Below, piece after piece: positions 4,333 through 32,503 of a DNA stretch of 64,000 nucleotides. The position numbers and the translations under genes were made by a program. The first letter of the stretch is position 1; each line of letters starts with the position of its first letter. The notes beneath the pieces were generated by a model. It was given only the letters and a program-made list of their open reading frames with translations. It had not been told where the DNA came from and searched no databases. Source of the DNA: an uncultured cyanobacterium (GTDB lineage: Bacteria > Cyanobacteriota > Cyanobacteriia > Cyanobacteriales > CAWUOF01); NCBI GenBank assembly GCA_963744145.1, contig CAVUSO010000001.1:5696001-5760000 (forward strand). Reading direction: 5' to 3'.

Positions 4333-5298
4333 GGAGCAGATCGGTTCAACTGCAAAAAAAGTTGCAAAAATCTTATCCCCCACTTCATAAATCTGCTGCT
4401 GTAAATGATTCAAAACCTCATGTAAACCAGTCTGAAAAATATCATCAATGGTTAAATAATCTAGTTCTGACCGTAAACGACCTAACGCACGTTCTACCGG
4501 ATCTCTCCAAGTTCCCATTGCGCTTCCAGTAATCTGATGTAATGATAATTCACTCGCAACTAAACAAGAGCGAATTGCGCGGGGAAAATCCCGATCTAAA
4601 ATCAAAAAATCTGCTACTTCCAGAGGTGTAATTCGATGTAGACTGCTCCGTTTACGATACATTTCATAAGCACTAGCTGATTTTAGCAAAGCCATCCACT
4701 GAATTTCATCTAATGTCGTACCTACATCCTTAACCGAAGGTAACAAAATAAAATACTTTACATCTAAAATTCTAGCAGTTTTATCAGCTCTTTCCAACAA
4801 CCGTCCTAATTGACCAAAATGCCATCCCTCATTATGAGTCATGGTAGCATCCATTACTCCAGCAAACAAATGACTAGCCATTTTTACCTGACTAAAAAAA
4901 TCATGGATATCTGGGAGCGATCGCAGCGATCGATTAGAAGTAAATTCTTTTACCATCAGATAAAACGCATTCACTTGTTCCCACATTTCCGAGGAAATAA
5001 TTTCGCGAATAGAACGAGCATTTTCCCGAGCTAAGTACAAACAAGATAGAATCGAATTAGGATAGTTGCTATCAAAAGCTAGAAACTGAATTACATTTTC
5101 GGCTGTTGCTTGATCATAACAACTATTGAACAATACCTGATCACCCATAGTGATCACTAGAGGTTCCCACTGTTGAGTAATCCCACTAGGAGAATCTAAA
5201 ATCAGATTGAGATTAGCATCAATAAACCTAGCAACATTTTCAGCTCGTTCAACATAGCGATTGAGCCAATAGATCGAATTAGCAACACGACTTAGCAT
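4330..5298 (-). CDS. Alpha-E domain protein (DUF403-like)
   Basis: MLSRVANSIYWLNRYVERAEN and GRLLERADKTARILD ER motifs; lies between CP-ATP-grasp and transglutaminase genes. Confidence 0.92.
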   Translation of the reverse strand: MLSRVANSIYWLNRYVERAENVARFIDANLNLILDSPSGITQQWEPLVITMGDQVLFNSCYDQATAENVIQFLAFDSNYPNSILSCLYLARENARSIREIISSEMWEQVNAFYLMVKEFTSNRSLRSLPDIHDFFSQVKMASHLFAGVMDATMTHNEGWHFGQLGRLLERADKTARILDVKYFILLPSVKDVGTTLDEIQWMALLKSASAYEMYRKRSSLHRITPLEVADFLILDRDFPRAIRSCLVASELSLHQITGSAMGTWRDPVERALGRLRSELDYLTIDDIFQTGLHEVLNHLQQQIYEVGDKIFATFFAVEPICS

Positions 5299-5315
5299 AA
5301 TTAAATATTCACAAA

Positions 5316-6749
5316 TTATTCAGTCAGTACCCAGGTATCTTTACTCCCTCCACCTTGAGAGGAATTAACTACCAAACAACCTTTTTTCAGAGCTACCCGA
5401 GTTAAACCACCGGGATTAACATAAGTATTCTGACCATAAAGAACATAAGGTCGTAAATCGACATGACATCCTTCAAAATGATCATCGATGATTGTCGGTA
5501 CTCGGGACAGACAAAGAGTAGGTTGGGCAATATAATTGCGGAGATGAGCTTGAATAAGTTCGGCAAATTTTTCGCGTTCCGCTGGGGTCGCATGGGGACC
5601 AACTAACATCCCATAGCCACCTGATTCATTAGCAGATTTTACTACCAGTTGCTCCAGATTGGCAAGGACATATTCTCGGTGCTTGGCTTCCCAGCACATA
5701 TAAGTAGGTACATTCGCTAAAATTTGTTCTTCACCCAAATAATAACGAATCATCTCAGGTACATAAGCATAGATCACTTTATCATCAGCAATCCCCGTAC
5801 CTAAAGCATTAGCAACCGCAACTCGACCCGAACGATATACTTCCATAAACCCAGGAATACCTAACTGGGAATCGGGACGAAATACTAAAGGATCGATAAA
5901 ATCATCATCAATGCGACGATAAACTACGTCAACTCGCTGTAAACCTTTAGTAGTACGCATTTGTAAATAACCATCTGCTACTACTAAGTCTCCTGCTTCT
6001 ACCAGTTCGACTCCCATTTGTTGGGCTAAAAAAGAATGCTCGAAGTAAGCAGAGTTGTAAATTCCTGGGGTTAAAACGACCACATTTGGATTTTGTAAAG
6101 TCCGTGGAGCAAGGTTGAGTAAAGTTTCCAGAAGATGACTCGGATAATCATCCACTGGTTGAATGGGCATACTAGTAAAAACTTGGGTAAAGGTACTTTT
6201 CATTACCCGTCGATTTTCTAAAACGTAGGAAACTCCAGAAGGACAACGCAGATTATCTTCCAGAACGTACCATTTACCATCGCGATCGCGAACTAAATCT
6301 GTACCCGTAATGTGACACCAGATCCCCTGGGGTGGTTTTAAACCCATACAGGGTGGTAAAAATCCTTTAGCAGAATAAATTATTTCTCCGGGAATAATCT
6401 TGTCTTTGATAATTTTCTGTTGGTCATAAATATCTGCTAAAAATAGATTAAGGGCATGAATGCGCTGTTTTAGACCTCGTTCGATCGTAGCCCATTCCTG
6501 AGCAGCAATAATCCGAGGGATGATATCAAAGGGAAATATCCGTTCCGTCCCCTGACTGTCCCCATAAACATTGAAAGTCACCCCGAGTTTAAACAAAGCA
6601 ATTTGTGCTGCTTGTTGTCTTTGTAAGAGTTCTCCATCTCCGAGAGCATGAATTTTCTCGATCAGGGGACTTACTTCAGGACGAGGTTTCCCTTTCGTGA
6701 TGAATAGCTCATCATAAAAATCTTCTGGGTCGTAATTATCAAATCGCAC
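5316..6749 (-). CDS. Circularly permuted type 2 ATP-grasp protein
   Basis: [47 protein letters not shown]. Confidence 0.93.
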
Positions 6750-29006: not shown

Positions 29007-29151
29007 CCCCGCACAAGTTGACAAAGCTTTTGCACTGGCGAGTTACCGTTACTCTACAGACCCTTTTTGAGGTGGATCTGGTAGGAGTCGAACCTACAAT
29101 TCCCGCTGTTCAAGCGGATTGTGTGTAAGCTTTATCTGTCAGGGTGCGGGG
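29007..29151 (-). ncRNA. Circularly permuted tRNA-like RNA closed by a long terminal stem (YrlA/Y-RNA-like)
   Basis: Minus-strand order: 5' stem, hairpin UCCGC-UUGAACA-GCGGG, T arm GUAGG-UUCGACU-CCUAC, acceptor 3' CAGAUCC, loop ACCUCAAAAA, acceptor 5' GGGUCUG, D arm GAGU-AACGGUA-ACUC, 3' stem; ends pair CCCCGCAC/GUGCGGGG, UGACA/UGUCA, AAAGCUU/AAGCUUU. Confidence 0.75.
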
Positions 29152-29165
29152 AAAAATTATTACCT

Positions 29166-29402: not shown

Positions 29403-29478
29403 GGTGTCTGACGGGACTCAAACCCGCTATTAACTAGCTTCACAGACTAGCGTCTCGATCGCTTCGACTTCAAACACC
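29403..29478 (-). tRNA. tRNA-His(GTG)
   Basis: G-1:C73, anticodon arm CTAGT-CTGTGAA-GCTAG; T loop TTTGAGT. Confidence 0.85.
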
Positions 29479-29556: not shown

Positions 29557-29565
29557 AAACCAAGA

Positions 29566-29639
29566 CGGGAATGGTAGGAATTGAACCCACAACATCCGAG
29601 GTAGAAACTCGGCGCTCTATCCGATTGAGCTACATTCCC
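29566..29639 (-). tRNA. tRNA-Arg(TCT)
   Basis: GGGAATG/CATTCCC, CCGAG-TTTCTAC-CTCGG. Confidence 0.9.
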
Positions 29640-29660
29640 ATCAACAATTGTGAAAATTTT

Positions 29661-29910
29661 TCAGTTCAGGCGATCGCGTAAGGGCGTGCAAGTTAGCAGA
29701 GCATTTTGCGTTTTCTCAGCTACTAGAGGGACTCCGCCGATGAGTTATTACACACTCTTTCAAGGATGGCTACTTCTAAGCCTACCTATCGGGTTCTTTG
29801 TACTCCCCATTGGCAAACGCGACCCGATATTTGATAGGGTTACTATTCCTCTCGTACTTAGTATGTAAGCTCTATCCTATTAGGGCACGCTGAGGACGCG
29901 ATCGCACTGA
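29661..29910 (-). ncRNA. Putative structured ncRNA mimicking the 23S rRNA factor-binding site (sarcin-ricin loop plus H42-H44 GTPase-associated centre)
   Basis: AGUACGAGAGGA hairpin at 29841-29863; CCGAUAGGUAGGCUUAGAAGUAGCCAUCCUUGAAAGAGUGUGUAAUAACUCAUCGG at 29737-29792; terminal stem GCGAUCGCGU..GCGUGC / GCACGC..ACGCGAUCGC. Confidence 0.8.
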
Positions 29911-29967
29911 TTACCAAACATGATCAAACGAATTTAACACACCTCCTTAAATCAAATTCAATTCACA

Positions 29968-30039
<72 letters not shown>

Positions 30040-30139: not shown

Positions 30140-30985
30140 TTATTTATCTGGCCGAAATCGCCGATCGAACTCTGTAAATATCTTTCTTTCTTCGCTTAGA
30201 TCCAGAACTGAAAATAGGATGCTTTTGAATCTTCCCCAAAACTGTCCTTTTGTTAATAAAAAATCCGCAAACATTTGAGCGACCATTGCCGGATCGTTTC
30301 TGAATACTCCACATCCCCAAGCTCCTAAAACTAAAGCATCACAATGATGGTAAGCAGCTAAACTTAACAACTTAGCACCGCGAACATAGAGAACTTCGCG
30401 AATTTTTCCTTGAGCCGGAGATGGTCTTTTTCTAATTTCACCAGCGTTAGGAGCTGGACTAGTGAAAAAATCCACTTGATGGGGGATTGACAGTAAAGTT
30501 CCATCATCTTTGCGAAAAATTGGACAACTTGGTGAATGAATAATATGATCGGAATATAAAAGTGAGGAAGTAGACCGATGAAAATCATAATATTTAGGAC
30601 ATTTCAATAGACTTTGGTAAAGTCCAGAACTACGTGCTAAACTCTCTTCTTGTGCTTGAGCACCTCTCATAAATCCACCACCAGGGTTTTTAGCAGAAGC
30701 AAAATTGAGAACACCAATTTTGGCAAATTTTTGAGTTTTCGTCATCATTTCTGCTCCGCTCAATGTCGTCTCATTCCTGATGGTAAATTCAGTATTAGTG
30801 AAGGTGGCAGCACTAGCGAGAACTTCGGTTTGGATTTGCTCAAGATCAGCAGGATCGTAACATTTTGTTTGAGCGACACAGAATGCTAAATCTGGCGCTA
30901 TATCCACCCGTTCGCTTTGAGGGGATTGGTAATAACCTGCTGCTAGTATATTGAGAGTATCTTGCGCGATCGCAACTCGCTTCAT
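30140..30985 (-). CDS. TIGR02452/DUF2263 bacterial-type poly(ADP-ribose) glycohydrolase (PARG-like macrodomain)
   Basis: LNFASAKNPGGGF..GAQAQEESLARSS, VLGAWGCGVFRN; start taken at ATG 30985 because the longer ORF overlaps tRNA-Thr. Confidence 0.9.
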   Translation of the reverse strand: MKRVAIAQDTLNILAAGYYQSPQSERVDIAPDLAFCVAQTKCYDPADLEQIQTEVLASAATFTNTEFTIRNETTLSGAEMMTKTQKFAKIGVLNFASAKNPGGGFMRGAQAQEESLARSSGLYQSLLKCPKYYDFHRSTSSLLYSDHIIHSPSCPIFRKDDGTLLSIPHQVDFFTSPAPNAGEIRKRPSPAQGKIREVLYVRGAKLLSLAAYHHCDALVLGAWGCGVFRNDPAMVAQMFADFLLTKGQFWGRFKSILFSVLDLSEERKIFTEFDRRFRPDK

Positions 30986-31027
30986 GTGTTTAAAACTCCT
31001 GATACATATCTCCTTTTTTAAAGTCCA

Positions 31028-31099
31028 AGCAGGAGGCGAGATTTGAACTCGCATAGGCAGTTTACAAGACTGCTGTGTTGCCATTGACACCACACCTGC
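31028..31099 (-). tRNA. tRNA-Thr(TGT)
   Basis: GCAGGTG/CTCCTGC (one mismatch), GCAGT-CTTGTAA-ACTGC. Confidence 0.85.
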
Positions 31100-31819: not shown

Positions 31820-31848
31820 ATACTACAATCATACTACAAAATTGTCAA
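31820..31848 (-). promoter_or_regulatory. Sigma70 promoter of the tRNA operon overlapped by two ATACTACA operator-like boxes
   Basis: TTGACA-N17-TAGTAT on minus strand; ATACTACA at 31820-31827 and 31831-31838. Confidence 0.8.
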
Positions 31849-32167: not shown

Positions 32168-32503
32168 ATGTATACCATTAATCGCACCTCAACCACGGAA
32201 ATGGAAGTAACTAGCATCAGACTGGAAAGAGAACTGAAGGAAAATCTCAAGGACATCGCAGGTGGTCAAGGTTATCAGGCTCTAATTCGAGATATTCTCT
32301 GGAACTATGTACAACAGAAATCGGGCGACTATCGACCTCAATTTTCCCGGACCGATATCCGGGCCAGTATAGCGGCTACAGCCCAACGAGAGGAGCATTG
32401 CGTTCTGACAGGGCAGTTAATTCGACCACAAGAACCGATGTTTTTAGGATTGACGATCAATGGCGATATGGTTCCCTTAAGTGTCAAAAGTTTAGTTGGT
32501 TAG
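32168..32503 (+). CDS. trcR: Ribbon-helix-helix transcriptional repressor, TrcR-like
   Basis: MEVTSIRLERELK..GYQALIRDILWNYVQQK; AAGGAG RBS; family recognised from memory, supported by adjacency to the tRNA array and shared boxes. Confidence 0.75.
   Translation: MYTINRTSTTEMEVTSIRLERELKENLKDIAGGQGYQALIRDILWNYVQQKSGDYRPQFSRTDIRASIAATAQREEHCVLTGQLIRPQEPMFLGLTINGDMVPLSVKSLVG

Follow-up and report, generated by a model that had tools for sequence, protein, structure and literature searches.

What is the sequence that lies between the genes for tRNA-Val(UAC) (29968..30039, minus strand) and tRNA-Arg(UCU) (29564..29640, minus strand) in this cyanobacterial tRNA array, and what use could a cell have for a copy of two separate parts of 23S rRNA at such a place? 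A sequence-only reading of the window, by which we mean the whole 64,000-nt stretch of DNA that was analysed, had described it as a mini-ribosome mimic, an RNA of ~250 nt in which the sarcin-ricin loop (SRL) is fused to the GTPase-associated centre (GAC), the site of uL11 and uL10. The SRL hairpin, the GAC segment, the terminal stem (29910-29885 with 29689-29661) and the flanking tRNAs are each found where they had been placed, on the minus strand. The size needs correction: the outer limits (29661..29910) are set by a GCGAUCGC-based extension of the terminal stem, and because this outer stem is variable, and absent as a conserved feature from stand-alone copies, the conserved unit is 207 nt (29684..29890, minus strand; alignments A1 and A2). 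Covariance model R1, whose training set included the element itself, matched 29682-29895 over its full length with 214.9 bits. A tRNA-like gene at 29403-29477 (minus strand) was found by Rfam (41.3 bits) and missed by ARAGORN.

The core folds into a terminal handle that leads to a four-way junction of handle, SRL helix, P4 and P5, all features being on the minus strand. The 5' strand of the handle (29864..29890) comprises P1, a conserved pyrimidine-rich internal loop, P2 and an invariant UACA linker, and the 3' strand (29684..29702) comprises P2, an ACUU loop and P1. The SRL hairpin (29841..29863) carries a 12-mer at 29858-29847 that is identical in the host 23S rRNA and in which we take positions 29852 and 29851 to be the equivalents of A2660 and G2661 (E. 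coli numbering). It is followed by the P4 hairpin (29822..29839) and by the long-range helix P5 (29708..29820; 29820-29815 with 29713-29708), which bears the entire H42-H44 arm. This arm (29726..29808), delimited by comparison of R1 with the host 23S, is a copy of 23S H42, with its lower stem and kink-turn 42 (the uL10 site), together with H43-H44; the SRL lies 76 nt upstream of it. The uL11-binding core (29737..29792) corresponds to positions 1093-1148 of the Rfam LSU model and includes the base triple U1072.U1092-A1099 at 29772/29752/29745.

The likeness to 23S rRNA is secure for the GAC, with a score of 77 against a shuffled maximum of 37. Rfam LSU_rRNA_bacteria aligned to 29737-29792 without gaps, as had been claimed (45.6 bits, E 1.1e-12, under the gathering score of 50), but the likeness reaches further, to ~82 nt including lower H42 and the kink-turn, since R1 matches 23S genes over model positions 87-167 (about 82 positions). 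No other family, YrlA and tRNA included, was returned by the Rfam scan of the element, so that no already described Rfam family fits. Taken alone, the SRL is not significant (local score 26, below the shuffled 95th percentile of 31), and its 12-mer has four exact copies in the genome, three of them in 23S genes, where ~0.9 would be expected under uniform composition; we judge it real because of its fixed position beside the GAC across homologues. The region as a whole folds better than 200/200 shuffles (z -3.56). Outside the GAC and SRL, alignment to the host 23S gave nothing significant, H96/H97 included, and a mini domain VI with P4 and P5 as H96 and H97 was for this reason set aside as speculation.

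Could the element simply be a piece of displaced rRNA? In the three 23S genes of the host the GAC precedes the SRL by 1551 nt, in agreement with the earlier statement that the two modules are ~1,550 nt apart and in the opposite order there. The element core shares 43/56 nt with the host 23S, its 13 differences leave the pairs intact, and with the reversed order it is not collinear with the host gene. Homologues that keep both modules together, which the sequence-only reading had made a test of its proposal, are present at full length in one planctomycete MAG and, according to BLAST of 400 further genomes from the cyanobacterial phylum, in 37 of these (36 with long matches at E < 1e-30, and G364, with two pieces that proved full-length on inspection). 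Two further genomes (G206, G314) have fragments, and the other matches among the 102 scoring genomes were short, of the length given by 23S genes. In BLAST-found loci with a printed spacing, 73-77 nt separate the SRL from the GAC motif. An SRL-gap-GAC pattern matched at least 122 stretches in species genomes (among 80 titles listed, 77 were cyanobacteria, one a Planctomycetaceae MAG and two unnamed bacteria) and 71 in metagenomes. Phage copies of the fused RNA were sought and rejected, the pattern being found in 0 viral contigs and a phage collection giving only short GAC matches. Long matches to the element occur on only two cyanobacterial plasmids, neither from Anabaena PCC 7120. One copy (L071 1421-1761, minus strand) carries an extra hairpin of 64 nt within the strand of lower H42. 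The single truncated copies in G206 and G314 indicate that decay does happen, but rRNA debris, a recombination scar or an assembly chimera is a practically negligible explanation of the element: order and spacing are the same on hundreds of independent contigs, 13 differences per 56 nt from the host 23S preserve the base pairs, and covariation extends to helices without any 23S counterpart. The RNA is conserved and structured, and the initial observation is thereby confirmed.

Alignment A2 was derived from 143 distinct cores, reduced to 60 at lower redundancy and to 57 rows after L069, L072 and L098, which have broken ends, were left out. Structure-free mutual information ranks pairs of upper H42, P2, P4, P5 (columns 89-199) and H43 at the top. 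The 53-pair structure has 93.9% of cells paired and 24 pairs that change on both sides; 0/500 shuffles attain either value, and slid controls, which are lenient because the structure came from these alignments and from rRNA knowledge, reach at most 49.5% paired. Changes on both sides affect 6/6 pairs of P4, whose sequence and length vary, 3/6 pairs of P5 and 6/13 pairs of P1 and P2, in which 89% and 94% of cells are paired; the ends of the element are thus joined in a long stem with an internal loop, as in Y RNAs. The SRL shows the bulged-G motif and a GAGA tetraloop on a closing helix (91% paired), and its 12-mer is unchanged in 28 of 29 A1 rows, which were chosen to have no more than one mismatch; rows from the SRL-gap-GAC pattern are likewise preselected, as the pattern fixes 10 of the 12 bases. 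Kink-turn 42, judged against the general kink-turn consensus, has its tandem G.A/A.G/A.G in 54, 56 and 57 of 57 rows, a 3-nt bulge and a closing C-G pair. The three-way junction of the GAC and its 1071/1072 triples are present, with G1071 in 57/57 rows and 96-100% pairing in the H42-H44 helices. The 1072 base triple, known from the ribosomal GAC (PMC8614978, PMC2952862) and left free at its three positions by the search pattern, is U.U-A in 54, C.C-G in two and mixed in one of the 57 rows and is thus compensated in 56; C.C-G is also found in the divergent metagenome copies L205 and L240.

Energy minimisation recovers the upper H42 helix in 26/57 rows, and in 15/57 it gives an alternative in which the invariant UACAUAC linker is paired with H44. 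In the window, this linker (29856-29870) is complementary to the H44 5' strand (29742-29755), and the minimum-energy fold joins the two, possibly as a switch and possibly by coincidence, given that handle RNAs without H44 have the same linker. Above the kink-turn the element strand is one base shorter than that of the host 23S; as this difference is near the equivalent of C1049, which contacts H97 in the ribosome (PMC2330231), the two sites need not be arranged as they are in the ribosome.

Retention of both kink-turn 42 and the uL11 fold fits an RNA that stores or titrates ribosomal proteins, binding uL11 and uL10-bL12 from damaged ribosomes or lifting their feedback control so that ribosomes can be rebuilt after translation stress, with a handle that merely stabilises or localises it. 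Ribosome biogenesis genes do rise late in the corresponding stress response of Anabaena (PMC8421152). We nevertheless consider this explanation unlikely, as it accounts neither for the near-invariant SRL nor for the tRNA and H69-H71 cargoes that are found on the same handle (see below). The suggestion of a sponge for thiopeptides is weakened by the variation of the thiostrepton-contact bases: this copy has A at the equivalents of both A1067 and A1095, but the family does so in only 43/57 and 50/57 rows, respectively, and A1067 substitutions confer thiostrepton resistance (PMC8614978).

The sequence-only reading, whose view of an RNA imitating the SRL and the uL11/uL10 site is supported, had overlooked the handle. 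This is an end module common to many RNAs with different cargoes. A two-motif pattern yielded 251 distinct handle RNAs (301 loci); 189 of them are SRL+GAC RNAs, a share that reflects the choice of SRL+GAC loci for the set. In this genome the pattern gave five handle RNAs compared with 0 and 2 in two shuffles. R1 also matches a 128-nt RNA elsewhere in the genome, with the same ends and a tRNA-like interior, and gave 36 matches in twelve further loci. The sister cargoes are YrlA-like or tRNA-like folds, a copy of H69-H71, or bare hairpins, and their matches to Rfam YrlA are weak (E 4e-6 to 2e-3, under gathering). A second handle RNA (29007..29154, minus strand; R1 E 4.9e-7) sits at the end of the element's own operon and has a cargo in YrlA order, namely a T arm, an acceptor-like stem and a D arm; it is weakly tRNA-like, with a partial Rfam YrlA match (E 0.005) far under gathering. 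Handle RNAs of ~185 nt with a 23S H69-H71 cargo occur at L292 1077-1265, L289 859-1043, L293 2713-2898 and L297 1576-1763. The cargo of the first is identical to the host 23S at 29/33 nt (score 50, shuffled maximum 42), and its three relatives score 36-40, near their own shuffled maxima of 34-40; the Rfam scan of L289 and L292 gave no match. Helix 69 appears circularly permuted in L289 and L293, its loop opened onto the handle. A handle RNA of ~150 nt with a three-hairpin cargo (L198 4589-4738, L294 646-794) resembles the host 23S weakly around 2347-2390 (score 29; 95th percentile of shuffles 28). Two handle-only RNAs of 64-65 nt in this genome (L300 3594-3658 and 4702-4765, minus strand) lie on either side of two short ORFs, of 77 and 117 aa, which by eye resemble a toxin-antitoxin pair.

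The operon of the 128-nt sister RNA contains a TrcR box, a 71-aa ORF, a 477-aa vWA protein, Tpt1, an AAA ATPase, a 278-aa protein and ThiF, of which Tpt1 and ThiF were assigned through Pfam matches of homologues at other loci (71-aa ORF, L299 601-816; unannotated 278-aa ORF, 4497-5333; ThiF-like gene, 5519-6154). The last three travel with the gene of the vWA protein. The Pfam scan of the 477-aa protein gave no TROVE call. A profile of 73 members of its family, however, finds human RO60 (E 5e-17), Deinococcus Rsr (E 1e-7), Xenopus Ro60 and a phage Ro60, and the 11 best Foldseek matches of its predicted structure (pLDDT 89) are all Ro60/TROVE proteins (TM 0.61-0.70). By profile and structural model, the 477-aa family is a divergent Ro60 homologue. 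Among 400 genomes, the Ro60-like protein is encoded in 45, the element in 37 and both in 36, so that a protein of Ro60 fold tracks the RNA in 36/37 genomes, with nine of the 45 having the protein without a full-length element. Of 126 genomes with a TrcR-like gene, 81 lack the Ro60-like protein, and one of these has the element. The 36 shared genomes comprise 18 in which RNA and protein gene are linked within 15 kb on one contig (within 4 kb in 10/36), two in which they are farther apart on the same contig and 16 with different contigs; in this genome they are 2.59 Mb apart. We regard the co-occurrence as supportive and not as proof because half of the pairs are linked within 15 kb and many genomes are close kin, 16 element genomes belonging to one genus. 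The most divergent copy (L205) directly precedes a gene of this Ro60-like family, as judged by eye from the N-terminal sequence.

Canonical Ro60 was rejected as the partner: Pfam TROVE (E <= 1e-10) was found in 18/401 genomes and in only one of the 37 element genomes, a search that undercounts, as it missed this genome's own canonical-looking Ro60 (L301 2204-3835). The GNCGAA motif, proposed for Rsr binding (PMC4201824), is present in the RNAs beside that gene. Frequent neighbours of the element are PARG, NADAR, RNA ligase, Tpt1, a macrodomain and a ~280-aa protein followed by ThiF (Pfam scan of 37 proteins, most of them representatives of 71 clusters); downstream of stand-alone copies, no neighbour is as frequent as the 278-aa family (38 ORFs). 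Within the tRNA array itself lies a microbial PARG-domain gene (30140..31093, minus strand; PF10021, E 1.4e-48), whose true start is probably downstream of the listed one.

An RNA that accompanies a Ro60 fold might work as in RYPER, joining the ring as tether or gate to a nuclease or other effector for the turnover of damaged rRNA, in which case the mimic would recruit ribosome-associated factors or compete with rRNA substrates for the ring. This is the established role of Y RNAs (PMC4201824), and exonuclease and RNA ligase genes are near some loci. That no known effector nuclease is consistently linked (loci of roughly 3 kb), and that several different baits per locus fit capture better than a single tether, makes this role rather improbable here. 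We prefer a subunit of a Y-RNA-like RNP to a free mini-ribosome because the end module is common to sister RNAs that track the divergent Ro60.

When would such an RNA be made? The window is of the trn L-array type: a TrcR-like gene runs divergently from the tRNA array, whose promoter carries two TGTAGTAT boxes. The predicted trn operon promoter (31820..31848, minus strand; TTGACA-17-TAGTAT) is a probable one, with TGTAGTAT TrcR boxes (motif from PMC10272220) at 31838-31831 and 31827-31820, at the -10 element. The argument is carried by this box context, since a general promoter and terminator scan gave no excess over shuffles (5 promoters, shuffled mean 5.3). The putative repressor gene (32168..32503, plus strand), an ORF without a Pfam match, has Leu at position 44, which fits the TrcR-L44P mutant (PMC10272220); a second, 94% identical TrcR-like gene (G000:C1:3120034-3120360) is ~16 kb from the Ro60-like operon. 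In Anabaena, TrcR keeps such arrays repressed, and translation stress switches them on (PMC10272220, PMC8421152).

The association with tRNA genes is only half of the picture, as among 200 distinct copies with enough flank a tRNA lies within 500 nt of 99 and of none of the other 101. Of the copies that have no tRNA close by, 53/101 carry an exact TGTAGTAT box just upstream, as against 0/99 of the tRNA-flanked ones; where the copy stands alone, the box precedes the SRL by ~55-60 nt. From this distribution of boxes, there seem to be two ways into the regulon for the element, within a trn transcript or from its own promoter. Release by processing of the flanking tRNAs, as first proposed, cannot be general, with about half of the copies tRNA-free and 53 having a TrcR box of their own. 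A Shine-Dalgarno-like sequence lies between tRNA-Val and the RNA (29940..29949, minus strand), and GGAGG or AGAGGTG is upstream of 93/99 tRNA-flanked copies as against 3/101 others. No conserved peptide was found behind it in the tRNA-flanked copies and a leader peptide was rejected; the sequence might protect the processed 5' end. Two metatranscriptome runs, each with 0.04 of the words, provided assembled contigs, which are mute on transcription, strand and level. Run X1 has three contigs over the 3' part that is specific to the element (29697-29785; 1, 4 and 7 differences) and none over the SRL half, a weak hint of the RNA in a relative; contigs of the other run cover the rRNA-like core only.

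The free ribotoxin or thiopeptide sponge of the sequence-only reading, released when the tRNAs are processed and needing no Ro60-like protein, would be at home among tRNAs, where 99/200 copies lie and where phage clusters hold handle-less GAC-only RNAs, and a near-invariant SRL would suit it. We think it improbable, as the handle is conserved as strongly as the cargo, the RNA co-occurs with the Ro60-like gene in 36/37 genomes and A1067 is not A in 14/57 rows.

The explanation towards which we lean, with a probability slightly above even, is that the SRL+GAC RNA is a stress-induced, Y-RNA-like bait on a Ro60-like ring, capturing proteins by which the factor-binding centre is recognised. What suggests a bait is that copies of the two docking sites of translation factors, which in the ribosome jointly form this centre (PMC2330231), are joined to a shared end piece that probably binds a Ro60-like protein. 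Judging from the motifs and the Anabaena papers, TrcR would silence the RNA until translation is impaired, and on derepression it would be made within the trn transcript or from its own promoter. Its ends would then pair as the handle while the interior folds into the SRL hairpin and the complete H42-H44 arm, a fold that covariation supports. The handle, whose 5' strand is a candidate binding module, may dock on the divergent 477-aa Ro60/TROVE-vWA ring, as co-occurrence suggests, and the cargo, probably loaded with uL11 and uL10, would bait its targets. These could be nucleases or modifying enzymes that attack the SRL or GAC, as varied sister cargoes and repair genes hint, or a translational GTPase that senses both sites, as fusion at a fixed spacing hints; either is a guess. 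The ring would keep captured proteins near the co-encoded repair, ADP-ribose-removal and ubiquitin-like/ThiF proteins, and sister RNAs would present other baits (tRNA, H69-H71) on the same handle. Conservation, secondary structure, the tertiary signatures of rRNA, the shared handle and the association with a Ro60 fold and TrcR boxes are supported by the data, and binding of the handle to the Ro60-like protein, loading with uL11/uL10 and protein capture are what we infer from them.

More tentatively, and rather doubtfully, the RNAs could form a set of interchangeable baits on one handle (tRNA elbows and anticodon arms, H69-H71, SRL+GAC), displayed by a Ro60-like ring and surveying attacks on translation. 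An enzyme that has been captured or activated, or a bait that has been damaged, would be handed on to the linked ubiquitin-like/ThiF and RNA-repair proteins. Were this so, nature would have provided, in the element, a minimal factor-binding centre able to engage a translational GTPase or ribotoxin away from the ribosome. If the bait interpretation is true, an unannotated Ro60 family gains a role, the 207-nt natural construct could be used to ask whether SRL and GAC suffice for translational GTPase binding or activation off the ribosome, and the idea of a decoy defence against enzymes that damage ribosomes under translation stress could be tested directly on the element.

How do these features compare with known systems? 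A literature search, with most subscription papers and bioRxiv supplements outside its range, found no description of such an RNA. Burroughs and Aravind reportedly surveyed RNA-repair operons and Ro-linked ncRNAs in 2016, which may bear on priority. Ribosomal protein leaders such as the L10 leader are cis elements before ribosomal protein genes and mimic the sites of these proteins; the element resembles them in mimicking such a site and differs in that no ribosomal protein gene is among its scanned neighbours. GAC-only RNAs of phages share with it a copy of H43-H44, a frequent location among tRNA genes and the covariation of the 1072 triple (24 C.C-G, four U.U-A and one mixed among 29 distinct RNAs), but have an H44 insertion of 78-334 nt (33/33 loci, L031-L063) and no SRL at the conserved spacing. 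They matched no Rfam family (20 of the 33 viral loci scanned), we found no description of them in the literature, and one is unannotated in Pseudomonas phage pf16 (L200, near 2501). With the cyanobacterial trn L-array and TrcR regulon, the locus shares the long tRNA array, the divergent TrcR-like gene and the TGTAGTAT boxes at -10 (PMC8421152, PMC10272220); the main texts of both papers, in which '23S' is absent, make no mention of such an RNA. With the 23S factor-binding centre (PMC2330231), the element shares the SRL 12-mer, kink-turn 42 and H43/H44 with base triples, the equivalents of U1060/A1088 and U1082/A1086 being kept, and it differs in being free-standing, with reversed order, a new four-way junction, a U.U-A triple where the host has C.C-G, and relaxed A1067 and A1095 in its family.

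Closest are the YrlA/YrlB Y RNAs that accompany Ro60 (Rsr) (RF02553; PMC4201824), which likewise have 5' and 3' ends paired in a long stem, an interior module imitating part of the translation apparatus and, as companions, a protein of Ro60 fold and genes for RNA repair. Neither the handle string nor that of the SRL occurs in six supplementary files of PMC4201824. The element is not filed as YrlA because motif, tRNA module and adjacency differ: the GNCGAAN0-1G motif near the 5' end is absent (0/251 handle RNAs; no GNCGAA in the first 25 nt in 251/251), the cargo is the 23S SRL and H42-H44 where YrlA has a tRNA-like T, acceptor and D module, and in this genome RNA and protein gene are separated by 2.59 Mb, not by ~4 kb or less. 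The partner family, at 477 aa and Pfam TROVE-negative, also differs from the two Nostoc Ro60s of 533 aa (PMC4201824). A Y-RNA-like RNA with a rewired factor-binding centre as cargo is thus apparently undescribed, and where bacterial Y RNAs imitate tRNA (PMC4201824), this element would extend Ro60 biology to the mimicry of rRNA.
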